A stretch of 64,000 bases of DNA, from NCBI GenBank assembly GCA_937873795.1, contig CALMWE010000268.1, positions 32-64,031 of the forward strand, written 5' to 3'. The first letter of the stretch is position 1. Every line of letters starts with the position of its first letter. The notes beneath the pieces are model-generated. The model did not search any database, was not told the origin of the DNA, and worked only from the letters and a program-made list of their open reading frames with translations. This document shows positions 2-50,363 of this stretch, piece after piece. The position numbers and the translations under genes were made by a program. The DNA comes from an uncultured Bacillales bacterium. Its GTDB lineage: Bacteria; Bacillota_I; Bacilli_A; RFN20; CAG-826.

Positions 2-337
2 CTTTTCCTAAAAGAATACGCTCTCTATCTTGCTTTGGCCGGCGTTGCGATTATTCTGATTGCAGTTTTTTTGATTTACTTTTCGGGGCGTCGCAAAAAG
101 ACCGCCGAGAACTATAATCCATTGATTACGGTTTTAGGAGGAAAAGAAAACATCATCCATGCCGAGGCCCGAGGATCCAGGCTAACGCTTCAAATCAAAG
201 ATGACACGAAAGTTGCTTACGACCAATTCCCCAAAGAACTCGTTTCAAACTATATTAAAATGACCGGTAAGTTAACTCTGGTTGTGGGTGAAAAAGGCAA
301 GCAAATCGCGGATGAAATTAACAAAAAAGCGGATTAG
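2..337 (+). CDS. partial CDS (5' end outside window): TM segment plus PTS EIIB(Glc)-like domain lacking the phospho-Cys
   Basis: The frame is open from nt 2, with no stop upstream of the TTG at 35. LITVLGGKENIIHAEARGSRLTLQIKD has the shape of the EIIB LGGxxNI...C-TRLR signature, but no Cys sits at the active-site position. Confidence 0.5.
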   Translation, partial: LFLKEYALYLALAGVAIILIAVFLIYFSGRRKKTAENYNPLITVLGGKENIIHAEARGSRLTLQIKDDTKVAYDQFPKELVSNYIKMTGKLTLVVGEKGKQIADEINKKAD

Positions 338-9624: not shown

Positions 9625-11382
9625 ATGGCTCCTTATTTCTTACCAGTCCCAGATAACACAGGCGATTTGATCATCGTCTTCATCGTTGCTTTAATCATCA
9701 TCCTCCTTGTTTTATTGGGGGCTTTTGCTGTTGCTAATACCCGAGATAGCCGGAATTTGATGCTCATCCGCAACCAGAGCAACAGCATTCGCGTCTATAT
9801 CATTGATATGAATAAAAACGAGGTTCGGCACTTTAACCAATCGGACCTTCGAAAGCAAGAACTTAAATCGGTTGAAGATTTTTACCAGAAGTTTGTCGAA
9901 TCTGACCGCAAAAAAGTGGAAGACTGGATCAAAGCGATTCTGAAAGATACCAGCGATGTCCCTCATTATCTTGAAGCGGACGTGAAAATTAACCGCGACA
10001 AGAAGAGTTACTTCTCCTTATTAGAGTTGAAAAAAGCCGATACCCGCCAACAAATCATCCACTTGGAAAGTTATATCCTGCGTTATAGCTTGCCCAAAAG
10101 CCGTAGGGCTCGCAAAGGCAATTCCCTTGTGGCTACCGAAGAACAAATTCAAACCATTCTGACCGATACTCGCAACAAACAAAAAGGCGCAACCTATGTT
10201 CTTCGCTTCTTCCCTGTGAAGCGAAAAGGTACTCCGACCAAAGAAATTTCGAACATCTTCATGTCTCAACTTAAAGGCCGCATCTTCCCATTCTTGAGTC
10301 CGACCCGCTACTTGGTGGAAGTCACCGATAACGAGTTTGCCATTGTGGATACCAAAGCCTCTTCCAGCAATGCTTGCATGCAATTGGCGCACTCGATTGC
10401 CCGTTCGATTTCCCGATACCTGGATATTAACGCCATTCGCGAAGACTTCGGCTTTGTCGTCGGTATTTGCGAAAACAAGTATTTCCCGGGCGATTTCCAA
10501 AAACTTTATAAAACAGCACGCATTATGTCCCTGGTTTCGCAAAACCGGTCAGTCCGTGTCTCGCTGTACGATAAAACAGTCAGTTTGACAGAATTCAAAA
10601 CAGACTCCTTCAACGAAGAAATCGATTTGATGATCGCCGAGAACCGTTTTGAATACATGTATCGTCCGGTGCTCGATGTTCGTAACATTTCGACGTTTGG
10701 TTATTTCTCTTACGTCAAAGCGAAAAGTTCTGTATTCACCAATGTTAACGAAGCAAAAACCTACGCGCGGACATCCAAATTTAACCAAGACAAGGATTTG
10801 TTCGCGGCGATTGCCAGCAACATCGTTCCCAGTTTCATATCCCAAAGAGATGGCGAACACCTAAAACTCTTCTTCAATATGTTTATGGCGGAACGCGTGT
10901 TTATCCCTGAAGTCCTCAACGTCATTCCAAGAGTTAAAGAGGCCAACTTAGTTCTAACGTTCGATGAGCAGGATATCCATACCTTCACTGTCGAGAACTC
11001 CCAAATCATCCCCGAACTTTTAAAATTAAAAGAGAATGGCTATGAATTGGCATTGACTTTAAATAATAAAGATTTATTATTGTCCTCGGAAATCTACTCG
11101 ACGTTTGATTATTTCATCGTCGACGGCAGGATGACCAAAGACATTGACCGTAATAACCGCCGCCGACAATTCCTTTATACCCTTTGCGAAAAACTCGTTC
11201 GCTATAAAAAGCCGATCATCGCAACGGACCTTGACAATTGGAACAGCATTGAACTGATGACCAAATCCGGCATCAACATGCTCTCCAGCAACGTCATCAG
11301 CGAGTCGGACGAAATGGTCCTTCCGTTCGATCGTAAGAAGATTCCGAAGATTAAATCATTCAATGTGGCCAACCGTGCCTAA
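9625..11382 (+). CDS. membrane protein with degenerate GGDEF-like (TDNEF) and degenerate EAL-like domains
   Basis: The ATG at 9625 follows AGGGTGA. One TM helix. RYLVEVTDNEFAIV aligns with the RxGGDEF strand, and YRPVLDVRNISTFGYFSY with the EAL domain start. LTLNNKDLLLSS replaces DDFGTGYSS and IIATDLDN replaces AEGVE. Confidence 0.6.
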   Translation: MAPYFLPVPDNTGDLIIVFIVALIIILLVLLGAFAVANTRDSRNLMLIRNQSNSIRVYIIDMNKNEVRHFNQSDLRKQELKSVEDFYQKFVESDRKKVEDWIKAILKDTSDVPHYLEADVKINRDKKSYFSLLELKKADTRQQIIHLESYILRYSLPKSRRARKGNSLVATEEQIQTILTDTRNKQKGATYVLRFFPVKRKGTPTKEISNIFMSQLKGRIFPFLSPTRYLVEVTDNEFAIVDTKASSSNACMQLAHSIARSISRYLDINAIREDFGFVVGICENKYFPGDFQKLYKTARIMSLVSQNRSVRVSLYDKTVSLTEFKTDSFNEEIDLMIAENRFEYMYRPVLDVRNISTFGYFSYVKAKSSVFTNVNEAKTYARTSKFNQDKDLFAAIASNIVPSFISQRDGEHLKLFFNMFMAERVFIPEVLNVIPRVKEANLVLTFDEQDIHTFTVENSQIIPELLKLKENGYELALTLNNKDLLLSSEIYSTFDYFIVDGRMTKDIDRNNRRRQFLYTLCEKLVRYKKPIIATDLDNWNSIELMTKSGINMLSSNVISESDEMVLPFDRKKIPKIKSFNVANRA

Positions 11383-21205: not shown

Positions 21206-22456
21206 ATGTTTGAAAGAAACAAAAAGAAACCCATCGTGAGGTTTCGCCATCGCTTCTTTAATGGCATCTTAAGGACTTTCTTCGGTCCTATTTTTAGGCA
21301 TATGTATCGCTTTCATGGCAAATTGAACCGTCTACGGAAGAAGGGCCCCTTTTTGATTTTGGTCAACCATACGGTCAATCTAGACCCGATTCTCTTGGGC
21401 ACCGTCTTTAATTTCCCGATTTACTACGTCGCTTCGGATCAAATCCTCAACCAAGGCTTTACCAGTGCGCTTTTGAAATATTTCTTTGCCCCGATCGGCA
21501 AAACCAAATCGATGCCGGATATCGCCGTGATCACGACCATCAAACGCATCATCAACCAAGGCGGCAGCGTTGCCATTTTCGTCGAAGGCAATGTCACAAT
21601 GACCGGAGAGACGGCCACGATTCCGCCCGCCATCGGAAAATTAGTCAAATTGGTCAACCGGCCCGTTATTTTTTACACCAACCACGGCTTGAATTTCAAC
21701 GATCCGCGTTGGTCGGTTCACCGTAAACATGGCTATGCCACGGGTTCCATCAAACGCATCATGCAACCGGAAGAATACAAGGATGTTTCGGCTGAAGATC
21801 TTAACGACTTGGTTAAGGAAGAGCTTTATGTCAACGCGTATGAAAAAGACCCTAAGCTTGAATACAAAGGAAAGAAACGGGCCGAAGGGCTCCAACGTTT
21901 AGTGTTCGTTTGCCCGCACTGCCATCAACCCTTTGGCATGTCTTCCCACGATGACAAACTGCTTTGTTCCCATTGCGGTTTCATCGGCACCTATGACACA
22001 AAAGGTTACCTCCAAAGTGAATTAGGCCAACAAACGATGATCGAACTCAACCGCACGACGCTCAACGATTGGACACATTTCTTAAAACACAACCCCGACA
22101 CGGTTTTGAAGGATTCTGCTAAAATCTTCATTACCTATCGAAATGCCCGCAAACGCACCCGTAAGGGCAAGCAAACCTTCTCGGTAACCCCCTTAGGCGT
22201 CACGGTCACCCGCAACGAAGAAATCCAAAACTTCACCTACAATGACATCATGGGTTTTGCCATGCAGCAGAAGAATAAAATCATCGTCTATCTCCACGAC
22301 CAACTCACTATTTTTGTGAAGTTCAATAAATGCGTCAGCGCCTATCAATACTTGGTGACTCTGCAGCTCTACCAAAATCGCTATACAATCCAAAAAGGAG
22401 AAAAAACATATGACTATTTCAGCGTGGACGAGCCTTGTCAATATTTGGGACTATAA
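21206..22456 (+). CDS. lysophospholipid/glycerolipid acyltransferase family protein with C-terminal zinc-ribbon region
   Basis: HX4D motif (VNHTVNLD) and the FVEGN motif. Later CPHCHQ...CSHCGF. Confidence 0.7.
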   Translation: MFERNKKKPIVRFRHRFFNGILRTFFGPIFRHMYRFHGKLNRLRKKGPFLILVNHTVNLDPILLGTVFNFPIYYVASDQILNQGFTSALLKYFFAPIGKTKSMPDIAVITTIKRIINQGGSVAIFVEGNVTMTGETATIPPAIGKLVKLVNRPVIFYTNHGLNFNDPRWSVHRKHGYATGSIKRIMQPEEYKDVSAEDLNDLVKEELYVNAYEKDPKLEYKGKKRAEGLQRLVFVCPHCHQPFGMSSHDDKLLCSHCGFIGTYDTKGYLQSELGQQTMIELNRTTLNDWTHFLKHNPDTVLKDSAKIFITYRNARKRTRKGKQTFSVTPLGVTVTRNEEIQNFTYNDIMGFAMQQKNKIIVYLHDQLTIFVKFNKCVSAYQYLVTLQLYQNRYTIQKGEKTYDYFSVDEPCQYLGL

Positions 22457-23876
22457 CGTTTACTGGGCGAACATCGTACAGATTGCCATCGTTTGTGCCA
22501 TCTTGTTGGTGTCCAACGCCATCCGTCGAAAGGTCAAATTCATCCGCAACAGTCTGATGCCGACCGCCATCATCGGTGGCTTCCTCGGGTTAGGCATCAA
22601 GTACTTGCTCATGGGCATTGCCGATTGGACCAACATTCCCGAAATTGCCATTTTGACGAATGACTTCTTAGGTGTTATCACGTACCATGCCTTAGCCCTC
22701 GGTTTCATTGCCATCGGCTTAAAAGAAGTGGAAAAAAATAAGGAAACCGGTAAAGCCATCGGACGTCCGATCAAAAGCGGTCTCTTCATCGTTTGTAACT
22801 ACGTGCTCCAAGGTATCTTAGGCCTTGTCATTACCATTGGTCTTTCGTTCGTCTTCACCAAAGTTGCGCCTTACGCTGGAGTCCTCTTACCGATGGGGTA
22901 TGGTCAAGGACCTGGACAAGCGTTCAATATCGGCACGATTTTCCAAACTGCCGGATTTGAAGGCGGGCAATCCTATGGATTGATGATTGCCACGATGGGC
23001 TTTGTCAGCGCCAGCGTCGGCGGCGTCATCTACCTCAACGTGATGGCCAAAAAAGGAAAACTCAAACGGAAAAACAATGAAGGCATGAGTGAATCGCAAG
23101 AAGGCGGTTATGTCGAAGCTACCAACGAGATTCCTTTAGTCGAATCCGTGGATAAACTCACCATCCAAGTCGCCTTGGTCGGTGTGACCTATCTTCTTAC
23201 TTGGGTGATTTTGACAGCATTGACGCTTGCCATCGATAACAGTGGTGTTAACTTCCTCATCAATAGCGTCAAACCGCTGCTCTGGGGCTTCAACTTCATC
23301 TTCTCTATCGCTATGGCTAATCTTGTCAAATTTATCATCAAACGGCTCAAAAAGAGAAAACTGATGAACCGTACCTATACGAACAATTACATGCTCAACC
23401 GTGTTTCCGGCGTGGCCTTTGACTTCATGATCATCGCGTCCATCATGGCCATCGACGTCCAAGCCATTTCTAACTGGGGTTCAATCATTTCACTCATTAT
23501 CATTTGCGTCTTAGGCGCTGTGGTGACGATGTGGTACGACTCCTACGTTGCCAAACGCGTTTACAAAGGCTACGAGCAAGAAGCGTTCCTGGTGTTCTAC
23601 GGCACGATGACCGGAACCGCCTCGACCGGTATCGCCTTGCTCCGCGAAATCGATCCGGAATTCAAAACTCCGGCGGCCACCGAAATCGTCACCGGTTCCT
23701 CGACCGCCATCATGTTCGGGTTCCCGCTGTTTTTGATTACCGGCGTCATCTTCAACGGCTGGTGGTGGATCATCGGCTCGCTTGCCTTATTGATCGTGAT
23801 GTTCATCGTGTTCCATTTCTTCTTGTTGCACGAACCTAAAAACAAAACCGCTAAACCGGTCGCCCAAAAAGAATAA
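22410..23876 (+). CDS. gltS: sodium/glutamate symporter (GltS/ESS family)-like
   Basis: 488 aa, polytopic. The overall pattern (MPTAIIGGFLGL..., central charged loop, GTASTGIALLREIDPEF) resembles GltS. A strong AAAGGAG RBS precedes the ATG at 22410. Confidence 0.7.
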   Translation: MTISAWTSLVNIWDYNVYWANIVQIAIVCAILLVSNAIRRKVKFIRNSLMPTAIIGGFLGLGIKYLLMGIADWTNIPEIAILTNDFLGVITYHALALGFIAIGLKEVEKNKETGKAIGRPIKSGLFIVCNYVLQGILGLVITIGLSFVFTKVAPYAGVLLPMGYGQGPGQAFNIGTIFQTAGFEGGQSYGLMIATMGFVSASVGGVIYLNVMAKKGKLKRKNNEGMSESQEGGYVEATNEIPLVESVDKLTIQVALVGVTYLLTWVILTALTLAIDNSGVNFLINSVKPLLWGFNFIFSIAMANLVKFIIKRLKKRKLMNRTYTNNYMLNRVSGVAFDFMIIASIMAIDVQAISNWGSIISLIIICVLGAVVTMWYDSYVAKRVYKGYEQEAFLVFYGTMTGTASTGIALLREIDPEFKTPAATEIVTGSSTAIMFGFPLFLITGVIFNGWWWIIGSLALLIVMFIVFHFFLLHEPKNKTAKPVAQKE

Positions 23877-41615: not shown

Positions 41616-41930
41616 TTAAGCTTTTTCGATGAAGCGGGTGAGGGGGCTTAAGGGCAAATACCCGACATTGCGGGCTTTTTCTTGGCCTTCGCCAAAGACA
41701 ATCAAGGTCGGAATCGAGTAGACGCCGTAGCGGCTCGAAATCTCGTCCAAAATGTCCACGTCGACTTTTGCAATCGGGGTGGCATCGCCATGTTCGGCCA
41801 AATACGATTCAAGCACCGGACCTTGCATGCGGCAGGGACCGCACCAGGTGGCAAAAAAATCGACCAAAACTTTTTTCTGTTTGATGAAGGCGTCGAATTC
41901 TTCAACGGTTTCGATGTGTTTAACTTCCAT
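41616..41930 (-). CDS. trxA: thioredoxin
   Basis: The ATG at 41930 follows AAAGGAGA. WCGPC active site. About 104 aa. Confidence 0.92.
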   Translation of the reverse strand: MEVKHIETVEEFDAFIKQKKVLVDFFATWCGPCRMQGPVLESYLAEHGDATPIAKVDVDILDEISSRYGVYSIPTLIVFGEGQEKARNVGYLPLSPLTRFIEKA

Positions 41931-41950: not shown

Positions 41951-42793
41951 TTAAATCAAGATATAGCTGAGTAAATTCAGCAGGATGATGTGGAACGGAT
42001 AGTAAGCATAAGTTCCGAAACGGAACCACTTGGAATCATAACCGCGTTTTCCGCTATAGAAGAGCAGGATGATCCCGGTGAGGGCCGATAAGCTTTGGAA
42101 CGTGATGAAAACAGTGTCCCAAGACGAATCAATCCTGAAAATAATATACCAAAGGATGTTCGTCGTGAGTAGCGATATGCTTGCAGCCGCGTTCGCATTC
42201 GATCGATATTGGCGGGTTAAGGCATACCCTTCAAAATCAATCCCATATTTTCCGCAGGCAGCTTTGCTGGCGGCTTCATTGATGAGGTAAGCAACGTAAT
42301 AAAACACGCCCATGGTCAACCCATATAAACCGTATTGCGGCGAAGTGAAGGGCGACACCACCGAGAAATTGAGTTTGAAATCCAAGAAAATATAAAGCGC
42401 CGGCACAATGGCCAACAGTTTTAAGTATTCTTTTTGTCTTAATAACCAGACCACCAAGGCAATCGCCAAAAGGTCCACGAAAATATTGCCCGTAATCATC
42501 GGTTCCCCGCCGATGAGTTGCCCGATCCAAAGCGCCAGCCCGATAAAAATACCGGAAATCGCTAAGCGGGCAAAATAGCGGAGCGGATGTTTCGTATGGA
42601 TGACGCCTTCGACGACCATGAACACGAAGAGCGGAAAAGCCGCACGGCCGATAATCCGGCTCACCAAATAGAGGCTGGTATTGGCCAAACCGACATTATG
42701 CAAAACGATGGCCCCGATATGATCGATGGTCATGGTGGCTAGCGCAATGATTTTAAGGACAAACGACGAAAACGGATATTTTTTGTTTTTCAT
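41951..42793 (-). CDS. TraX family membrane protein
   Basis: 280 aa, polytopic. LKIIALATMTIDHIGAIV is the TraX-family N-terminal signature. Confidence 0.7.
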   Translation of the reverse strand: MKNKKYPFSSFVLKIIALATMTIDHIGAIVLHNVGLANTSLYLVSRIIGRAAFPLFVFMVVEGVIHTKHPLRYFARLAISGIFIGLALWIGQLIGGEPMITGNIFVDLLAIALVVWLLRQKEYLKLLAIVPALYIFLDFKLNFSVVSPFTSPQYGLYGLTMGVFYYVAYLINEAASKAACGKYGIDFEGYALTRQYRSNANAAASISLLTTNILWYIIFRIDSSWDTVFITFQSLSALTGIILLFYSGKRGYDSKWFRFGTYAYYPFHIILLNLLSYILI

Positions 42794-42796
42794 AAA

Positions 42797-43663
42797 CTAA
42801 AGAATTTTGGTGAGTGCGCCGGTCGAGAAAAGATAGGTTGAGAGATAGGAAACCAAGTTGTTGGTGACGTGCGCATAAATGGAAGTCGAAAGGTCTTCTT
42901 TATCGTAGGCATAACAAAGGATTGCGCCCGCCGACATGTAGTAGGGGAGGTTGAGCAATTCATTGGTCCAGTTCGTCGTTTGGAAATCAAAGTGGATTAA
43001 TCCGAAAAGCAAGATAACGACGATGTAAGCGGCAATTTTGCTGTAGCGGCGGATCCCGGAGAATAAACCCAAACGATAAGTCAACTCTTCGCAGACCGGC
43101 CCGAGAATGACAAACGCCACAAACGACATCAACGGATAGGCTTTCATCATGGCGACGACCGCGGATTCGTTCGCGTTATCCGTGGGAGCGATGCGTAATA
43201 ATTGGTAAATCAAACCGATCACCGTTCCGGCGATGATGACGCCGACGCCGTACGAGACACCTAAAACCAAAGGCCGCCATCTCTTAAATTGTTTGAGCAA
43301 AGGCTTCACGATCGGAAAAACGATCGCCAACAAGCATCCGAAAAGAGCGGTATAAGCAAAGAAATTGATGTACATCGAGATTTGCAGCGAATGCATCGCC
43401 AAAGTGACTTCGGCGGGATCGCTGTATTTCCAAGAAAGGATCAGTTGGATAATGAGCGAAATGATGGTGGCTAAGATATCCAAGCCGAGCCATCCGGACA
43501 CAAACGCCAAAATCTGCCGTCCTAACGGAAGGTCGGTTCTGTTTTTCTTTTCATTTATTTGGCCAGTCGTCGAAAAGTCATTCTTTTCGTGACACGTGGG
43601 ACATTCGGGCAAAGTTTCATCATAATATGACCCACATTTGGGACAATTTCTGGTTTTAATCAT
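42797..43663 (-). CDS. CPBP (CAAX/Abi) family intramembrane metalloprotease with N-terminal zinc ribbon
   Basis: NCPKCGSYYDETLPECPTCH, then TM helices carrying the CPBP motifs EELTYR, FGLIHF and HVTNN. Confidence 0.8.
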   Translation of the reverse strand: MIKTRNCPKCGSYYDETLPECPTCHEKNDFSTTGQINEKKNRTDLPLGRQILAFVSGWLGLDILATIISLIIQLILSWKYSDPAEVTLAMHSLQISMYINFFAYTALFGCLLAIVFPIVKPLLKQFKRWRPLVLGVSYGVGVIIAGTVIGLIYQLLRIAPTDNANESAVVAMMKAYPLMSFVAFVILGPVCEELTYRLGLFSGIRRYSKIAAYIVVILLFGLIHFDFQTTNWTNELLNLPYYMSAGAILCYAYDKEDLSTSIYAHVTNNLVSYLSTYLFSTGALTKIL

Positions 43664-43783
43664 AAAGTACCTCTAAGTTTGTTTATATTTGTAATCATAG
43701 CATAGCAATCGCGAAAAGTATCCCCTACTCACGCCCGCGATATCGTGTGTATAATGAAAATATAAAATGGAGATGGTATTTTT

Positions 43784-46700
43784 ATGAACATTGCTTCACT
43801 CAGTACCGCTATTCTCACGAATCTTCCGATTGCGCCCGATCAAGTCCAATTGTATTTCACATTGGGCTTTTTCGTCATCGTCCTATTCCTTGTCCTCGGT
43901 TTCCTCATCGGCCTATGGCGAGGGATTTGGAATGCCAGCTTCCGATTAATCTTTGTCGGTGGCTTGGTCATTGTCGCGTTCCTCTTCACGCGCAACATCG
44001 CTGATGCCCTCAGCAACATCGATATCAAAGCGTTCCTCGCGAACTTTGGTGTCAACCTCACGACCATCGATGTGCCTCTGGGTGAAGATACGATCGTTGT
44101 GGAAGTGACCAGCGCCCGCGAAATGGTCCTCTCCTTAATCTCCCAAGCCTACGAAGCCTTTGGCCTTGGATCGGCCGATTCCGCTGCCGCCTCGGAACTC
44201 ATCCTGGCGTTGGCGTTGGTCTTTATCCGTTACATCATCTTCATTGTCGAAGCACTCCTCATCGTCTTCGTCATTGATCCGCTGAGCGGTCTGCTTTACC
44301 ACCTCATCTTTAAATGGTTCATTCCCAAACCCGTTCGCAAACACATGAAAAAACGCCTGATCGGCGGTTTCGAAAACATGGTCAAGGTGGGCTTAGTCAC
44401 CACCATGATGATGATTCCGTTTACTTCATTGCTTAATACCATCAACCAAGCCGTTCGCGATCGCGATACCGTTCGTGTAGAAGGTAATAGCGAAACTTAC
44501 GACACGATGATGTCGTTCTTGGATGCTTATAATAACTCTGCTTTCGCTCAAATCTTATTTAACTGGTCTGTCAACGAAGACGGCAAAACGCTGGACGTGG
44601 TGCTGATGGACTTTGTCACGCAAGAAAACATGGATGATGCTACCTTGGCGTTATCTACGGAAATGTATACCGTCGCTCAAATCGGGACCACCCTGATTTC
44701 TTCGGGCATCATCGAAGATGCCCAAGTTGCTCTATCGACTCAAATCTTAACCAATGAAGACCTCGTTTCTTCCTTGTTCTTAAGCTTAGCCAACTCCGCC
44801 TTGATCGTGAAAGCCATCCCGATCGCGTTAGCGGTCGCGATGAACATGCCTGAGGTCCAAGAATACGTGGATCCCACGCTCTTAGATTTCGATGGCGTCG
44901 ATTGGCGCGAAGAACTCCTCAATTTGAGCACGATCACCAATCAAGTCGTGGCCTCGGGTGTCGTCACCTCGATTTTGAATGCCGGCGATGATCCCAACGC
45001 CGTGCCGGTCGCGGCCCTCCGTTCGTTGACCGCAGCAACGGCCCATGACGATGTCAAAGCGGCTTTAACCGCGATTGACGATTCCGAATTCTTATCGCAA
45101 GTCATCCCTGCCGTTCTCTACACCATGGTTCAAAGCGAAATCGCCACGCCGCTCCCTGAAGGAAGTCTCGGCCTTTCGACGTTCCTCCCGACCGACTGGG
45201 CAGACTATGAAGACTTCCACTTCGGTGAAGAACTTGGACTTGTTTACGATACTTTCTACAACCTCATGAATGTCACGCCGGACTTTACCGACATGGTCAT
45301 TGATACGCTCTTCACGCAAACGGAAGAACCCAGCCCTGCCATCCGAACCACCAAAAATGCGCAATCCAACTCGGATCCGTATTCCTATGGCGGCGGTGGC
45401 TTGGTCCGTGATCCTTCCTATATCTTAGGCGTCTGGACCAAAGATGACCTGATTGCCGAAATCCGTGATAACATCGATCCCATCCTTGCTTTGATCGTCG
45501 GTGCTACCGATGATGACGGCGATCCGCTCAACGTGGATGCCGAAGGCAAAACCGACTTGACCGTCGCGGGAGCCAAACCCTGCATCCTCGACTCGGATTT
45601 ATTGATGTCAGGCATGCGCGGAATCCTTGATTATGGCTTGACTCAATTAGGCAGCATGGACGCCCTGACTTCCATGGGCTTTGCCCTTGATGAAACTAAA
45701 AAAGATGAAGTCTTGACCGACCTCGAAGGCGCGACCTCGGGTGAACGCCGTGTCAACTTCAAACGCGAATACGGCTCAGTCTTAGGCATCGTCGGTGCCT
45801 TGATCGGCAACGATAAACTCGTCGAAGCCTTAGGACTTACCTCCTCCGAAAGTTCATCCTCGGAGCAAAGTTCCGCAGCCGTCCAAGCGGACAACCCTGA
45901 AACCGAACCTGGTGCCAAAACACCGTTACGTTCCTCCGTCGATTCTTCCAGTTCCAGCTCTTCCGAAGATAACGCCGTCTTAGACCTCTTCCAAGATGAA
46001 GAAGTCCGCGAATACATCAAAGATGAAGTGTGCCCGCGTCTGGATAATTCCCACTTGATGGGATTCCTCTTGCCAGATATCCTTGAGGCCGTTGTCGGCG
46101 GTACGGACTTTACCGAAATCCGCGACTTCATCGGACTCGATGTCACCGATTTGAACTTTGATCTCGATTCGATCGGTACCGAAATGGGCGTGTTCATTGA
46201 TTTGATGGGTTATGCCCTCAACGTCATGGATGCGGACATGAACGATATCGAAACGTTCATCGGCGAACACGCCGGCGATATCACCGGAATTCTCGATTGC
46301 ATCTATCAATCCAACATCTTCAACCCGAAAGATGCGTTGGGCAATTTCGAAAGCGAAAACTATTACACCATCCTTGAAACCATCTTCACCGGAAGCGGCG
46401 ACTTTGGTTTTGATCCCGATGAAGTCTCCGCTGCCGTCCGCAGCGTGGATGAAACCGGATGGGCGACCACCTATGACGAAGAAGGCAATGTTGTCCAATA
46501 TGGCGAAAACTATTACATGATCCACACGATTTCCACCGTGTTTGACGAAGGCTTGTTCGATTTGATGGGCGAAACCAATATTTTGACCGCTCTCAACTCG
46601 CCCGAATACGATGGTGCTATTACCGCCGTCTTCTCTTCGATTGAAGATTCCGAAGTCATGTCCAGCTGTTTCGGAGGCCTCTTGGATAACCTCTTCAGTG

Positions 46701-49672
46701 GGGATACCACGATCGTCGACCCGGATGGCCTGGGAACCAGTTTCCGCAACGTCACCGACTGGGCCGCAGAAGGCGCCAACCTCGAATTGATGCTCGACAC
46801 CCTCAATACCTTTGGTAATGACCTAGAGGGCATCGACTTCATGGACTTCTCCGCCGAGAACGTCGAAAGCCTGTTGACCGAACTGGCCCACAGCGGCATC
46901 TTTGATGATCCCGACGGCGATTACCTCTTAGGCGAATTCCTCTATTCGAAATTCATCGGCGCCGGCATGGGCGAATACCTGCTGGATAAAGATGAAGTCT
47001 CTACCGATCCGTCTCCCTACGATGAAGTCCATAGCGACTTCCTCAGTGTCGGACCGACGACCAGCGAAGCTGATAAATTAGCTTGGGAACAAGAAATCAG
47101 CGCCATCGCCAATGTCATCGGGGCCGTCAATGATTTGGAAACCGCGCTTGGTTCCACCGATGGACTCGGCGCGTTGACCAATGGCAGTGCCAGTGCCGCG
47201 CAAATCGAAACCGTCGTCTTAGCGGTCAACGATTGCTCGGTGCTCCGTATGGCCATCTACAATGTCTTCGATGATATGTTGGGCGGAGGTTCCATGAACA
47301 TGGGCAGCCTCAATCCGTCGGATGCCAATACCGCCATCCTCATCGACTGCACCAAAGCCGAACGTGCCACCGAAATCGGCTACACGCTCGACATCTATGA
47401 TGCCGTCCAAACCTTGGCGCTCGATACCGGCTTCAGCGAAGCCAACCTCAACGCCGATACCATCGAAACGATGTTAACCAATTTGCATAATTCCAAACTC
47501 TTCAATACCATCAACGAAGACCATTCGCGCCTTGCCGGTGACTTGACCGTGTTTGAACAAACGATCAAGATGATCGAACAAACCGCGACGCTGGATGATT
47601 ATGTCTACAAACAATCGGCCGAAGTTTTACGCGATGGCTTATTGGAAGATGATATTCTCTTGATCGGCAACAACCTCGCCGGAACCACCCTCGATGTCGA
47701 TGGTTGGCTCGGTGTCGGCGGTGAAATCGCCAAACTCGGCGATTTGATGCAAGCCTTCAAAGATACCGCTCTGACGTTCACTTCCTTTGGTACCGATGGC
47801 GCCAACGCCGTCTCCACCTTAATGGATACGCCCGAAGGCATCATCAAAGTCCAAAACTTGCTCCTCGCCGTCAACCATTCCGAACTCATGTATCCGGCCA
47901 TCCCGAACTTATTTGATACGATGCTGACCGCGACCGATGTCGGTATTACCGGCGTCGACCTGTCCGCTGCCAATACCCACTATGTGGGTGACCGCGGCGA
48001 AGGTGCCTATCCCGACAGCGAGATCACTTCGATTACCGACCTGTTCTCGCAAATGAAGGATTTGGCGTCCACGTCCTATAACGACTTGTCCGCGTTAACC
48101 ACCGATACCCTCGATGATATCGAAGATCTTCTGACCAGCTTAGCCGAATCGGAAATCTTCCATCAACAAGGCGCCAGCAGTGGCGTCAATAGCGATCCGA
48201 CCGTCTTTGAACAATTGATGGTCAAGATCATGGATGACACCGGTATCAGCGGCCAAATCAACGATACCAACAACCCCAATCCGCTTTACTACGACGGCCT
48301 CGTCTACAAATTCGCCTCCGCTCATGAAAAAGCGTTATACCTCGTTGTCAATTTCGAAACGATCAACGATTCCGGTGATTTGTTTACCACCAGTTGGACC
48401 GGTACCGGCGGTGAAATCGAAGCCTTCATCCGCATCTTCCGCGAAATCAAACGCGCGATGCCGAGCATGACGACGGCGACCATCGATCCGACCGCCATCA
48501 ACCCGACCAATGTCTCTGACATCTTAGCCGCCTTGAACTACTCGAACCTCGGTTCGGATGCGGTCCCCAAGGTCATTAAAGACAGCTTCACCGATATCAG
48601 CATCAACACTTTCACCGGCGGAAACGAAGAATACTATCTGACCCCGATGGAATATGCGGATACCGAACTCGATGACAAAGATTATTCAACCCTGATTCCG
48701 ACCACGACTTCGACCGGCCTCTTCCATATCTTGCTCAACGCGTTCTGGGATGAAACCCTCGACCCGGATGGCTACATCGATATGAGTGGTGGGTTCAGCT
48801 TGGCCAACTATGTCAATGGCGGACACTCAACCTCCAACATCCTCCAATTCCTCGAAGGGTCCAAGATCTTTGGTCCGACCGTTCCGGGAAAAACCTATAA
48901 GGTTCGGTCGTTGGTTTTCTACAACTGGCTCGACCAAATCGAAATGGAAAAATACATCCGTACCCTCGCTAATGGCTCGATGACCGCCGATGAACGTTGC
49001 ACCAAACTTGAAAACGTGTTTGCCGGCGACTTCGACTATGTCATGGAAAGCGGCTCGTTGGATGGCCTTGTGGTCAACCTCAACGGCTTCACCGGTGCCG
49101 TCAACGCCGGCTCCTTGGAAGGCTTTGGCCAGCAAGCCTCGGCAATGATCTCCTCGACCTATGCCGTCGATGGTTCCAATAACATCGTCGACCGTGCTTA
49201 CTTGTCGAGCGAACTCGTGGCCGGGTTCTACACCGATATTCTCGCTTCTGAATATGCACTCGCCGGACGTACCGGCTTCGAAATCGACTTCTTCGCCTCC
49301 GACTTTGCCGAGTTGAATCCTACCGAAGCACTCGGTGTTAATGGAGCGCTTGAAGTTGTCCCCGAAATCAACGCCATCGTCAGCGGTGGAACGACTCAAG
49401 CCGAAGTCGACGCTTTACGCGCCAGCTTCGTGGACATGGGCAGTTATGTGGCTTGCCACACGCCCGGACCTGCTTGGAATAACGGCAACTCGCACATCGC
49501 CCAACTCATCTACGCGGCGCGTGTCGTGACCAACGCCAACTTTGTCGGCGCTAAAGCTGCTTACGAATTCCTCAATCCGGGTCAAACCATCGAAGATGAT
49601 CCGTATGTCTCCGGATTCGTCTTTGAAACCGAAGGCGGAAAGATTTGCGACTACTACGAAACCTTGATCTAG
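43784..49672 (+). CDS. giant (1,962 aa) acidic repeat protein with CvpA-like N-terminal membrane anchor, function unknown
   Basis: One uninterrupted ORF with TATAAT at 43750-43755, a GGAG RBS and a terminator at 49682-49712. It has N-terminal TM helices (GLWRGIWNASFRLI) and a D/E-rich remainder with recurring motifs. Confidence 0.85.
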   Translation: MNIASLSTAILTNLPIAPDQVQLYFTLGFFVIVLFLVLGFLIGLWRGIWNASFRLIFVGGLVIVAFLFTRNIADALSNIDIKAFLANFGVNLTTIDVPLGEDTIVVEVTSAREMVLSLISQAYEAFGLGSADSAAASELILALALVFIRYIIFIVEALLIVFVIDPLSGLLYHLIFKWFIPKPVRKHMKKRLIGGFENMVKVGLVTTMMMIPFTSLLNTINQAVRDRDTVRVEGNSETYDTMMSFLDAYNNSAFAQILFNWSVNEDGKTLDVVLMDFVTQENMDDATLALSTEMYTVAQIGTTLISSGIIEDAQVALSTQILTNEDLVSSLFLSLANSALIVKAIPIALAVAMNMPEVQEYVDPTLLDFDGVDWREELLNLSTITNQVVASGVVTSILNAGDDPNAVPVAALRSLTAATAHDDVKAALTAIDDSEFLSQVIPAVLYTMVQSEIATPLPEGSLGLSTFLPTDWADYEDFHFGEELGLVYDTFYNLMNVTPDFTDMVIDTLFTQTEEPSPAIRTTKNAQSNSDPYSYGGGGLVRDPSYILGVWTKDDLIAEIRDNIDPILALIVGATDDDGDPLNVDAEGKTDLTVAGAKPCILDSDLLMSGMRGILDYGLTQLGSMDALTSMGFALDETKKDEVLTDLEGATSGERRVNFKREYGSVLGIVGALIGNDKLVEALGLTSSESSSSEQSSAAVQADNPETEPGAKTPLRSSVDSSSSSSSEDNAVLDLFQDEEVREYIKDEVCPRLDNSHLMGFLLPDILEAVVGGTDFTEIRDFIGLDVTDLNFDLDSIGTEMGVFIDLMGYALNVMDADMNDIETFIGEHAGDITGILDCIYQSNIFNPKDALGNFESENYYTILETIFTGSGDFGFDPDEVSAAVRSVDETGWATTYDEEGNVVQYGENYYMIHTISTVFDEGLFDLMGETNILTALNSPEYDGAITAVFSSIEDSEVMSSCFGGLLDNLFSGDTTIVDPDGLGTSFRNVTDWAAEGANLELMLDTLNTFGNDLEGIDFMDFSAENVESLLTELAHSGIFDDPDGDYLLGEFLYSKFIGAGMGEYLLDKDEVSTDPSPYDEVHSDFLSVGPTTSEADKLAWEQEISAIANVIGAVNDLETALGSTDGLGALTNGSASAAQIETVVLAVNDCSVLRMAIYNVFDDMLGGGSMNMGSLNPSDANTAILIDCTKAERATEIGYTLDIYDAVQTLALDTGFSEANLNADTIETMLTNLHNSKLFNTINEDHSRLAGDLTVFEQTIKMIEQTATLDDYVYKQSAEVLRDGLLEDDILLIGNNLAGTTLDVDGWLGVGGEIAKLGDLMQAFKDTALTFTSFGTDGANAVSTLMDTPEGIIKVQNLLLAVNHSELMYPAIPNLFDTMLTATDVGITGVDLSAANTHYVGDRGEGAYPDSEITSITDLFSQMKDLASTSYNDLSALTTDTLDDIEDLLTSLAESEIFHQQGASSGVNSDPTVFEQLMVKIMDDTGISGQINDTNNPNPLYYDGLVYKFASAHEKALYLVVNFETINDSGDLFTTSWTGTGGEIEAFIRIFREIKRAMPSMTTATIDPTAINPTNVSDILAALNYSNLGSDAVPKVIKDSFTDISINTFTGGNEEYYLTPMEYADTELDDKDYSTLIPTTTSTGLFHILLNAFWDETLDPDGYIDMSGGFSLANYVNGGHSTSNILQFLEGSKIFGPTVPGKTYKVRSLVFYNWLDQIEMEKYIRTLANGSMTADERCTKLENVFAGDFDYVMESGSLDGLVVNLNGFTGAVNAGSLEGFGQQASAMISSTYAVDGSNNIVDRAYLSSELVAGFYTDILASEYALAGRTGFEIDFFASDFAELNPTEALGVNGALEVVPEINAIVSGGTTQAEVDALRASFVDMGSYVACHTPGPAWNNGNSHIAQLIYAARVVTNANFVGAKAAYEFLNPGQTIEDDPYVSGFVFETEGGKICDYYETLI
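45839..45970 (+). repeat. Ser-rich low-complexity linker inside the giant ORF
   Basis: TSSESSSSEQSS...RSSVDSSSSSSSED, encoded by mixed Ser codons (tcc/agt/tca/tcg/agc/tct). Confidence 0.7.
46277..48589 (+). repeat. divergent protein-level repeats of about 195-230 aa within the giant ORF
   Basis: Recurring motifs: LL..L..S.IF at nt 46277, 46859, 47459 and 48107. L.AVN.S.L...IP..F at 46625, 47213, 47858 and 48521. W.G.GGEI at 47705 and 48395. Confidence 0.55.
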
Positions 49673-49681
49673 ACGATACGA

Positions 49682-49712
49682 AGATCCCTCGGGCAACCGA
49701 GGGATTTTTTTA
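49682..49712 (+). terminator. rho-independent terminator after the giant ORF
   Basis: ATCCCTCGG-GCAA-CCGAGGGAT stem followed by T7. Confidence 0.85.
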
Positions 49713-49739
49713 TTCTTGTATGGTAAAATGGTTATCGCT

Positions 49740-50363
49740 ATGAACTACGGCATCGAAAAAGAAAACCAATTTACGCTGATCGTCGAAAAGTCCGAATTTA
49801 TCGGGCTTGTTTTTCCGCTTCATAATCTCGATGAAGTATCCGTTCATCTATCCCAAATCAAGAAACGTTATCCCGATGCCCGGCATTATTGTTATGCCTA
49901 TCGTTTGGGCAACAGCAGCCGTTCCAGCGATGACGGCGAACCCTCGGGAACCGCCGGACGACCGCTGTTAGAACTTCTGAACAAGAAAGAACTCGATCGA
50001 GTTTTACTTGTGGTGGTCCGCTACTTCGGTGGAACTAAACTTGGCGCCGGCCGTCTTTTACGGACGTATATCGAAGCCGGAAACTTAGCCTTATCGGGAT
50101 GCCACATCGGTACTTTTCAAACCTTTTCCGGGTTTCGTCTGGAACTTCCTTACTCATCCATCGATAACGTCAAACAATGGGCACGCGAATCCGGTGCCAT
50201 CATCGAACAAATAGTCTATAATGAAACAGTTGAAATGACCGTATACGGTCCTCTCGACGCTTGGCCTTCGCTCGAAGGCTTGCTTCCCAAACTTGAAAAA
50301 CGGGAAGTATTGACACCCAAAGAAGTCTTAGTTTTCAAGGAGGAAAAAGACCATGTGTCCTGA
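49740..50363 (+). CDS. yigZ: YigZ / IMPACT (UPF0029) family protein
   Basis: Has the hallmark DDGEPSGTAGRPLL and VVRYFGGTKLGAGRL. A TGGTAAAAT extended -10 at about 49725 argues for the ATG at 49740. Confidence 0.85.
   Translation: MNYGIEKENQFTLIVEKSEFIGLVFPLHNLDEVSVHLSQIKKRYPDARHYCYAYRLGNSSRSSDDGEPSGTAGRPLLELLNKKELDRVLLVVVRYFGGTKLGAGRLLRTYIEAGNLALSGCHIGTFQTFSGFRLELPYSSIDNVKQWARESGAIIEQIVYNETVEMTVYGPLDAWPSLEGLLPKLEKREVLTPKEVLVFKEEKDHVS

Follow-up and report, generated by a model that had tools for sequence, protein, structure and literature searches.

What is the role of a giant, acidic, repeat-built protein that no database names? The question is raised by an open reading frame (ORF) in a 64,000-nucleotide stretch of DNA from an uncultured Bacillales bacterium (contig CALMWE010000268.1), hereafter called the window. 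The ORF runs uninterrupted, from an ATG start, between positions 43784 and 49672 of the forward strand. It encodes a 1,962-amino-acid (aa) protein of 212 kDa with a pI of ~4.05 (299 D+E versus 86 K+R residues). A preliminary description, made from the sequence alone, had recorded both the ORF and its acidic character correctly. The same description called the protein an orphan, built from at least 4-5 diverged helical modules of ~200 aa on a CvpA-like membrane anchor. Our analysis indicates that the gene most likely encodes a core, single-copy envelope protein of an uncultured Bacilli lineage. We give an even chance to a more specific proposal: that the product, conserved throughout the lineage and anchored in the membrane, forms a helical fibre or coat outside the cell.

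Modules and family of the giant protein

Three short motif types had been listed as recurring along the protein, at eleven positions, all of which were correct. Plain BLASTP of the protein against itself returned the identity match alone. When fragments were instead compared with the whole protein, alongside 20 block-shuffled controls, off-diagonal alignments were found at offsets of 195-220 aa. These scored 52.4, 43.1, 39.3 and 36.2 bits, while the shuffled maximum was 30.4. We conclude that the internal periodicity is above chance. A hidden Markov model (HMM) of the module was seeded with four copies, iterated over homologues, and converged at 246 copies. It detects 6-10 modules in each complete family protein. 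In the window protein there are five complete modules of ~210 aa and one degenerate module, with a probable further one at the C-terminus. The array starts at aa 276, directly past the anchor, and not near aa 800. The first copy, module 0, is the best kept in the most distant members of the first homology-search set (BLASTP matches of homologues P0029-P0035 span aa ~24-520).

Modules abut without linkers at residues 1003/1004 and 1419/1420. Copies within one protein are 15-25% identical and share the consensus LLxxLxxSxIFN ... TxFE ... DxWxGxxGEI ... LxxxNxSxxxxxAxPN. Recurrence of the three motif types is therefore real, but they are landmarks of one ~210-aa module rather than separate elements. 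Within it, motif ii (LL..L..S.IF) is at position ~31, motif iii (the WxGxxGEI type) at ~110-121, and motif i (the NxS...P type) at ~146-162, in the same register in successive modules. A Ser-rich stretch, previously described as a linker, is present. It occurs in the window protein and in homologues P0002 and P0003, and is absent from P0004, P0009, P0021 and P0029. Since it interrupts the degenerate second module, and does so in the closest relatives only, the stretch is a recent lineage-specific insertion and not a linker of the family. At the same site, homologues retain about three quarters of the module (positions ~45-197).

Homologue P0003 (2,606 aa; locus L001, 8001-15821) has four consecutive copies, at aa 1190-2056, each 49-56% identical to module 4 of the window protein. 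The latter has one such copy (47378-48043). Differences in homologue length thus arise by tandem duplication of one module type.

We modelled the module with AlphaFold2 (aa 1199-1420, 44-sequence alignment). The model has ~10 helices, a predicted local distance difference test score (pLDDT) of 86.5 and a predicted template modelling score (pTM) of 0.83. The model of the C-terminal domain (34 sequences; pLDDT 88.0, pTM 0.86) is helical with one small hairpin. Note that the models cover single domains; a MAFFT alignment of tandem pairs (A4) staggered onto shared modules (1,272 columns) and was left unused. Foldseek searches of the PDB gave nothing significant for the module (best E 0.75) or the C-terminal domain (best E 0.58), with TM-scores below 0.25 for both. 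The module model had no match among viral structures (BFVD), and a sequence-profile search of the PDB with the module also found no match. For the whole protein, scans of Pfam and NCBIfam at E<=1 returned noise alone (GET2, BclA_C, PilN, SAM decarboxylase), with no wall-binding domain (SLH, CWB2 and similar). No family recurred when 44 modules and 34 C-terminal domains were scanned one by one against Pfam; three of the modules weakly matched ARMH3_C (E 3e-4).

Armadillo (ARM) and HEAT repeats offer one known comparison. Like them, the chain is all-helical, and the top non-significant Foldseek rows are beta-catenin, APC, STAG1 and MO25. Conversely, these rows have E>=0.58 and TM-scores <=0.24, the unit is 210 aa rather than 40-47 aa, and the chain is predicted to be extracellular. 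Neither profile nor structure comparison gave a significant match to helical repeat families with units of 34-47 aa (ARM, HEAT or TPR). We conclude that module and C-terminal domain are confidently predicted helical folds unlike any solved structure or curated family. Modelling and searching a single module had been suggested as a check, and the earlier view of an undescribed family survives it. So does that of a membrane-tethered protein made of diverged helical modules, which self-alignment, HMM and AlphaFold2 model all favour.

An HMM of the C-terminal domain detects this region in 84 fetched proteins. Using hhalign, columns 63-210 of the domain aligned with module positions 31-193 (E 1.6e-4, probability 51%). 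The domain therefore probably begins with a diverged terminal module of ~200 aa. We also considered a polymorphic toxin. This was rejected; the C-terminal domain is conserved, not variable, and a toxin/immunity signature was not found.

The protein is not an orphan. A first homology search found 35 homologue clusters, all hypothetical proteins of uncultured Firmicutes/Bacillota. The closest two, from independent assemblies, differ by 5 residues and are 89% identical, respectively; the remaining clusters are 27-48% identical and 1,200-3,033 aa long. HMMER, used with the module profile against 1.84 billion representative proteins, gave 205 proteins at E<=1e-3 and 174 at E<=1e-10. Note that these ~205 matches are clusters at 50% identity. 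Nearly all are 1,200-3,000 aa, have 5-14 matched stretches each, and lack annotation. Among 180 fetched sequences, 158 start with the anchor at residue 1. Most of the remainder are far shorter, and probably contig-end fragments, although four of these 22 reach 1,760-2,399 aa. Two homology searches with profiles of the C-terminal domain returned fragments alone and added little.

Colinearity extends over 99% of the length in homologues of 1,963-1,966 aa that are 35% identical. The ratio of nonsynonymous to synonymous substitution rates (dN/dS), calculated against the 89%-identical orthologue (locus L009), is 0.10 overall and 0.04-0.16 across ten segments. These comparisons indicate that the gene is real and under purifying selection. 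In the 64-kb window it has no paralogue; HMMs for anchor, module and C-terminal domain match the giant ORF alone.

Chromosomal position is also conserved. We compared 11 family loci: the window, L001, L003, L005, L006, L008, L031-L034 and L036. The order thioredoxin-TraX-CPBP, then the divergent giant gene, followed by YigZ (or the next conserved gene), recurs across them. As the preliminary description had suggested checking, neighbours are conserved: CPBP in 11 of 11 loci and TraX, with thioredoxin, in 10. At the remaining locus, L008, the contig stops right past the CPBP gene. The block includes family members sharing ~20-30% identity, and outlying genes vary among loci. The window ORF has the anchor, modules and C-terminal domain in order, at such a CPBP-adjacent locus. 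Taken together, sequence comparisons delineate an unnamed family of fixed architecture, with an N-terminal anchor, a chain of 6-10 modules, and a C-terminal domain; it is module number that varies.

Metagenome-assembled genomes (MAGs) carrying the family are labelled Bacilli, Bacillales or Bacillota, one Erysipelotrichaceae, and some Staphylococcaceae or Staphylococcus epidermidis. The family is found in freshwater metagenomes and in the Erysipelotrichaceae-labelled MAG. Records L022, L028, L009, L013, L014 and L024 were deposited as 'Staphylococcus epidermidis', 'Staphylococcus sp.' or 'uncultured Staphylococcaceae'. Giant genes of these environmental, staphylococcus-labelled MAGs are 38-84% identical to each other and have a shared, non-staphylococcal context; the labels look wrong. 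Our literature search for the host lineage found nothing specific. At one locus (L036, 6001-12626), on a MAG contig of 188 kb, two adjacent ORFs of 1,527 and 655 aa, with 75 nucleotides between them, take the place of an intact giant gene. The break is a frameshift or stop, reflecting either a pseudogene or an assembly error.

The membrane anchor and its orientation

Several hydrophobic helices had been noted in the first ~215 aa, the first pair being likened to CvpA. The hydrophobic segments are present (Table 1), and GLWRGIWNASFRLI is located at aa 42-55, in the first pair. A further candidate transmembrane (TM) helix, at aa 327-358, was rejected as a buried core helix of the first module, aligned with motif ii. 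In an alignment of 15 diverse N-termini, residues F40, G43, G47, F176, R185, K186, K189, G194, G195, P212 and N218 are invariant, with G39 and W49 nearly so. Pfam Colicin_V (PF02674) is the sole family to recur, matching 13 of the 15 N-termini with a best E of 4.8e-5. The gathering threshold of this family is 29.3 bits. The window N-terminus scored 14.8 bits (E 0.028), and ten further diverse N-termini gave 10-22 bits or no match.

We next aligned the anchor profile with Escherichia coli K-12 CvpA (b2313), using hhalign. Residues 30-66 correspond to CvpA 6-42 (E 4.5e-4, probability 33%). The conserved first hairpin of CvpA type, comprising TM1, a GxxxG/Arg-Gly loop and TM2, is found in the family anchor; the loop is GLWRG here and SLIRG in E. 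coli. Both proteins also have a polytopic N-terminal domain, of putatively about four passes, and a predicted extracytoplasmic C-terminus of variable length. They differ in that the giant protein has a 65-aa acidic loop inserted after TM2. It is also 12 times longer, whereas CvpA is a stand-alone protein of ~160-200 aa. Likewise, E. coli cvpA adjoins purF, while the giant gene adjoins genes for CPBP, TraX and YigZ. We conclude that the anchor is CvpA-like at a sub-threshold level, with a resemblance that is recurrent but weak. Hence, the proposed likeness of the first pair holds: Colicin_V matches and hhalign speak for it, and the match to E. coli CvpA extends to TM1, loop and TM2 only.

The distribution of charge bears on orientation. 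Averaged over 15 diverse anchors, the N-terminal tail has 0.2 K+R and 1.6 D+E residues. Equivalent values are 2.7 and 0.5 for loop 1, 0.8 and 5.8 for loop 2, and 6.5 and 0.1 for loop 3. By the positive-inside rule, these charges fit an anchor with both N- and C-terminus outside. A parallel is MarP (Rv3671c) of Mycobacterium tuberculosis, the TM region of which we take to belong to the Colicin_V family. In MarP, four TM helices at the N-terminus are followed by a C-terminal domain in the periplasm (PMC4992679). Hence, in both cases, a polytopic N-terminal anchor would hold a large extracytoplasmic domain; the likeness is one of layout. The passenger of MarP is a 200-aa trypsin-like protease, whereas that of the giant protein is 1,740 aa of helical modules that look non-catalytic. 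For CvpA, too, published work predicts that the C-terminus, which varies in length, lies in the periplasm after four membrane passes (bioRxiv 10.1101/2020.09.25.314492). From the positive-inside rule, and by analogy to CvpA and MarP, we infer that the big domain is outside the cell.

Beyond aa 360 the giant protein has no hydrophobic segment and no LPxTG-like motif, and its C-terminus is ...CDYYETLI. It lacks the features of a sortase-anchored protein (cleavable signal peptide, C-terminal LPXTG and hydrophobic tail). Composition across the family is 15.4% D+E, 6.5% K+R and 0.43% Cys. Low Cys, acidic composition and a Ser-rich insert are typical of exported Gram-positive proteins.

A proposed surface fibre and its alternatives

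How might such a protein operate as an extracellular fibre or coat? In our proposal, the N-terminus and the acidic loop of the inserted anchor would face outwards, and the first and K/R-rich loops inwards. The last TM helix would then serve as an uncleaved signal-anchor and export the 1,740-aa acidic chain. Outside the cell, the linkerless modules would form an extended and strongly negative fibre, a few tens of nanometres long (our rough estimate, at ~4-5 nm per module). This fibre would be held at the membrane by the CvpA-like domain, with a role as surface coat or spacer, and its length could be tuned through module duplication. The CPBP protease, TraX and thioredoxin may process or modify the fibre; conserved adjacency alone suggests this link.

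Giant repeat-built surface proteins are already a known kind, and Staphylococcus aureus Ebh, with its FIVAR/GA modules, is an example from Gram-positive bacteria with helical repeats. Like proteins of the Ebh type, the giant protein would be a very large, acidic, repeat-built and mostly helical surface chain, in which repeat number varies between strains or species. However, proteins of that type begin with a signal peptide that can be cleaved off, are anchored at the C-terminus (by LPXTG or a TM helix) and use repeats of ~50-130 aa. Here, the anchor is N-terminal and polytopic, there is no LPXTG, and the unit of ~210 aa, with ~10 helices, belongs to no Pfam repeat family. None of Pfam, NCBIfam and the PDB describes an N-terminal anchor of this polytopic CvpA-like kind, a 210-aa helical module such as this one, or the C-terminal domain.

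If our proposal is right, a lineage-wide, and possibly well-expressed, giant envelope protein is named in no database. Its anchoring would differ from the usual Gram-positive scheme of signal peptide and LPXTG. It would help to explain how uncultured Bacilli build their surface, provide a natural case of length tuning by module duplication, and offer an entry point to CvpA, a widespread membrane protein with no known mechanism. Even with a mundane function, the 'orphan' is replaced by a defined family, with a domain map and profile alignments usable for annotation. A bolder version, which we consider improbable, is that these bacteria have an envelope of a type not seen before, with the family as its chief structural component. 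This would combine a new-fold acidic fibre, its length set by module number, a CvpA-like socket, and CPBP, TraX and thioredoxin as a dedicated maturation system. The CvpA fold would then gain a concrete role for the first time, that of a socket in the membrane that holds an extracellular passenger.

Several points weigh against a fibre or coat. All family scores against Colicin_V are under the 29.3-bit cut-off, so that membership of the CvpA family is not supported by the Pfam threshold, and the hhalign match to CvpA is confined to the first hairpin. No binding or catalytic site was identified in the giant protein. The outside location of the chain is deduced from charge and analogy, and rod formation by the modules is extrapolated from models of single domains. 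Residues 137-180 are long enough to cross the membrane twice, which would make the big domain cytoplasmic. Adjacency to CPBP and TraX may be general lineage synteny in small genomes, rather than a functional unit, because conservation at the locus extends to yigZ and pepP, which are unrelated housekeeping genes. Finally, the fibre may span a wall rather than form a coat, depending on whether the host has a cell wall.

A fibre at the cell surface might also be an adhesin or attachment organelle, binding a host, prey, particle or partner cell via the conserved C-terminal domain, rather than a general coat. Giant staphylococcal and streptococcal surface proteins are the model here, and the preliminary description had already named a surface scaffold or adhesin-like structure as a possibility. 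Such a role is suggested by giant size, modular repeats of variable number, likely surface exposure, and a distinct, conserved distal C-terminal domain. Some members are on contigs of 670-720 kb, which is compatible with, though not proof of, small and possibly dependent genomes. However, a dN/dS of 0.10, single copy and fixed syntenic position would be unusual for variable host-interaction adhesins. Purifying selection of this strength, on a gene kept in one copy at one syntenic place, is more in keeping with a core component of the envelope. The arrangement of signal peptide and LPXTG is also missing, and no known adhesive domain was found by domain scans of the whole protein, modules or C-terminal domains. 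Furthermore, members come both from free-water metagenomes and from the Erysipelotrichaceae-labelled MAG. We view attachment as unlikely, though credible enough to be kept in mind.

The length of the 137-180 segment permits a cytoplasmic alternative. Were it a helical hairpin, the last helix would run from out to in, and the acidic chain would form a cytoskeleton-like scaffold along the cytoplasmic side of the membrane. All-helical ARM/HEAT-like arrays are common within cells, the top Foldseek rows, albeit non-significant, are armadillo-type proteins, and ARMH3_C is matched by a few modules. Conversely, two passes at 137-180 would place the K/R-rich loop, with its 6.5 K+R, outside, and the acidic loop inside, contrary to the positive-inside rule. 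The C-out topology predicted for CvpA and MarP is contradicted too, and low Cys, Ser-rich inserts and the very acidic composition suit exported proteins. We consider a cytoplasmic scaffold distinctly improbable.

Alternatively, the membrane domain may be the business end, with a CvpA-type stress or transport function, and the remainder a huge extracellular sensor or tether (of a mechanosensor or envelope-stress sensor). Homologues P0029-P0035, the most distant in the first search, resemble the window protein most in anchor and first module, by BLASTP. One distant anchor weakly matches a mechanosensitive-channel TM helix family. CvpA itself has remote similarity to MscS/MscL and a genetic link to the sigma-E envelope stress response (bioRxiv 10.1101/2020.09.25.314492), and its C-terminal periplasmic tail is variable and needed for function. 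However, similarity to CvpA is sub-threshold and partial, and no second, canonical CvpA function is known. Moreover, purifying selection on modules and C-terminal domain equals that on the anchor; hence, these regions would not be a mere appendage. Our confidence in a sensor is low.

The chain could instead be a processed or secreted product. Here, the CPBP protease, or a signal peptidase, would cut at or after the last TM helix, releasing the acidic chain as a matrix or capsule-like protein, and TraX and thioredoxin would aid maturation. The conserved position of all three genes next to the giant gene, with CPBP its immediate divergent neighbour, is in keeping with this, and the K/R-rich loop and last TM helix resemble a signal peptide. 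Yet a conserved cleavage motif of AxA type was not found past the helix in the alignment of 15 N-termini, and the conserved block also includes housekeeping genes that have no tie to secretion. Release of the chain is also doubtful. Finally, while repeats can misassemble, and module number differs among relatives, a spurious long ORF or assembly chimera has practically no chance of being correct, and is rejected as far as sequence data allow, given copies too diverged to be mis-assembled, near-identical and 89%-identical proteins in independent assemblies, colinear 35%-identical homologues, and the low dN/dS.

Expression signals and neighbouring genes

Features of the giant gene, its product, and adjoining genes are in Table 1. 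Of the expression signals previously reported, the TATAAT hexamer, GGAG ribosome-binding site and terminator are all present. A consensus promoter scan did not list the TATAAT. Because no -35 hexamer matches, the promoter is a -10, or extended -10, resemblance only. The ATG is supported by homologue N-termini, which align from the same Met. The earlier suggestion that the gene is its own transcription unit is plausible. Note, however, that the TATAAT sits inside a 120-bp divergent intergenic region common to the CPBP gene, and that this shared promoter region is conserved family-wide. The GC content at third codon positions (GC3) of the giant ORF, 0.641, is the second highest of 53 window ORFs, with enolase close at 0.632; overall GC is 0.519 for the ORF versus 0.461 for the window. 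Such values may hint at high expression.

Table 1. Features of the giant gene, its product and the adjoining genes (nucleotide positions in the window, unless given as aa)
Feature	Position	Strand	Basis or remark
104-aa ORF, thioredoxin position	41616..41930	-	by position alone in the window
TraX-family membrane protein gene	41951..42793	-	PF05857, E 1.3e-20; second gene of divergent unit
CPBP / Rce1-like intramembrane protease gene	42797..43663	-	PF02517, E 1.1e-15; adjoins giant gene in 11/11 loci
-10-like hexamer TATAAT	43750..43755	+	TGTG just 5', resembles extended -10; read from sequence
GGAG ribosome-binding site	43769..43772	+	11 nt 5' of ATG; sequence
Complete coding sequence	43784..49672	+	1,962 aa; dN/dS 0.10 vs L009 orthologue; colinear homologues
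Polytopic membrane anchor, aa 1-220	43784..44443	+	alignment A1, sub-threshold Pfam, hhalign, charge distribution
Anchor TM1	aa ~24-45	+	hydrophobic segment
Anchor basic GxxxG/RG loop	aa 46-54	+	sequence
Anchor TM2	aa 55-72	+	hydrophobic segment
Anchor acidic loop	aa 73-136	+	sequence
Anchor hydrophobic stretch	aa 137-180	+	44 hydrophobic residues; one or two passes
Anchor K/R-rich loop	aa 181-196	+	sequence
Anchor last TM	aa 197-217	+	hydrophobic segment
Module 0, aa 276-489, complete	44609..45250	+	module HMM E 2.5e-36
Ser-rich low-complexity insert, aa 686-729	45839..45970	+	inside degenerate second module
Module 1 remnant, aa 721-794 (module positions 128-196)	45944..46165	+	module HMM E 1.7e-9
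Module 2, aa 805-1004, complete	46196..46795	+	HMM E 8.8e-38; 802-973 vs 997-1168, 36.2 bits
Module 3, aa 1003-1204, complete	46790..47395	+	HMM E 1.3e-42; self-alignment 43.1 bits
Module 4, aa 1199-1420 (HMM core 1220-1420)	47378..48043	+	HMM E 1.2e-56; AlphaFold2 model
Module 5, aa 1419-1630, complete	48038..48673	+	HMM E 2.8e-43; 1104-1267 vs 1314-1486, 52.4 bits
C-terminal domain, aa 1631-1962 (332 aa)	48674..49669	+	family HMM, AlphaFold2 model
Intrinsic terminator	49680..49719	+	13-bp stem, 4-nt loop (49680-49709), then T run
YigZ / IMPACT-N (UPF0029) gene	49728..50363	+	PF01205, E 1.9e-34; directly 3' of giant gene in most loci

A thioredoxin is annotated at the position of the 104-aa ORF in L001, L003, L005, L006 and L031-L034. 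We know of no described function for the thioredoxin-TraX-CPBP trio. At L032, a methyltransferase gene is inserted between TraX and CPBP. Downstream of YigZ, in the window, are genes for an Mrp/ParA ATPase and aminopeptidase P. The window is otherwise ordinary chromosome, with genes for RNase J, ProRS, enolase, an ABC transporter, an AddAB-type helicase and nuclease, and glycerol-type kinases.

Other very large, exported-looking proteins are encoded near the locus in L001 (1-4631 and 18645-21098) and L034 (17513-20273). They include an RHS/YD-shell protein of >1,937 aa, and extracellular Endonuclease_1 proteins with Big_2, Big_3 or LTD domains, from 817 to >1,171 aa. Elsewhere in the window, a 488-aa ORF with no Pfam match (22410-23876, +) is between an acyltransferase gene and the enolase region. 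The same order, with a gene of ~483 aa that has no recognised domain, occurs at the locus of a distant relative (L003, 314-1765). Lastly, a 585-aa protein (9625-11382, +) has no Pfam match at E<=1e-5 in its N-terminal 330 aa, and an EAL domain in the C-terminal half alone (aa 332-553).

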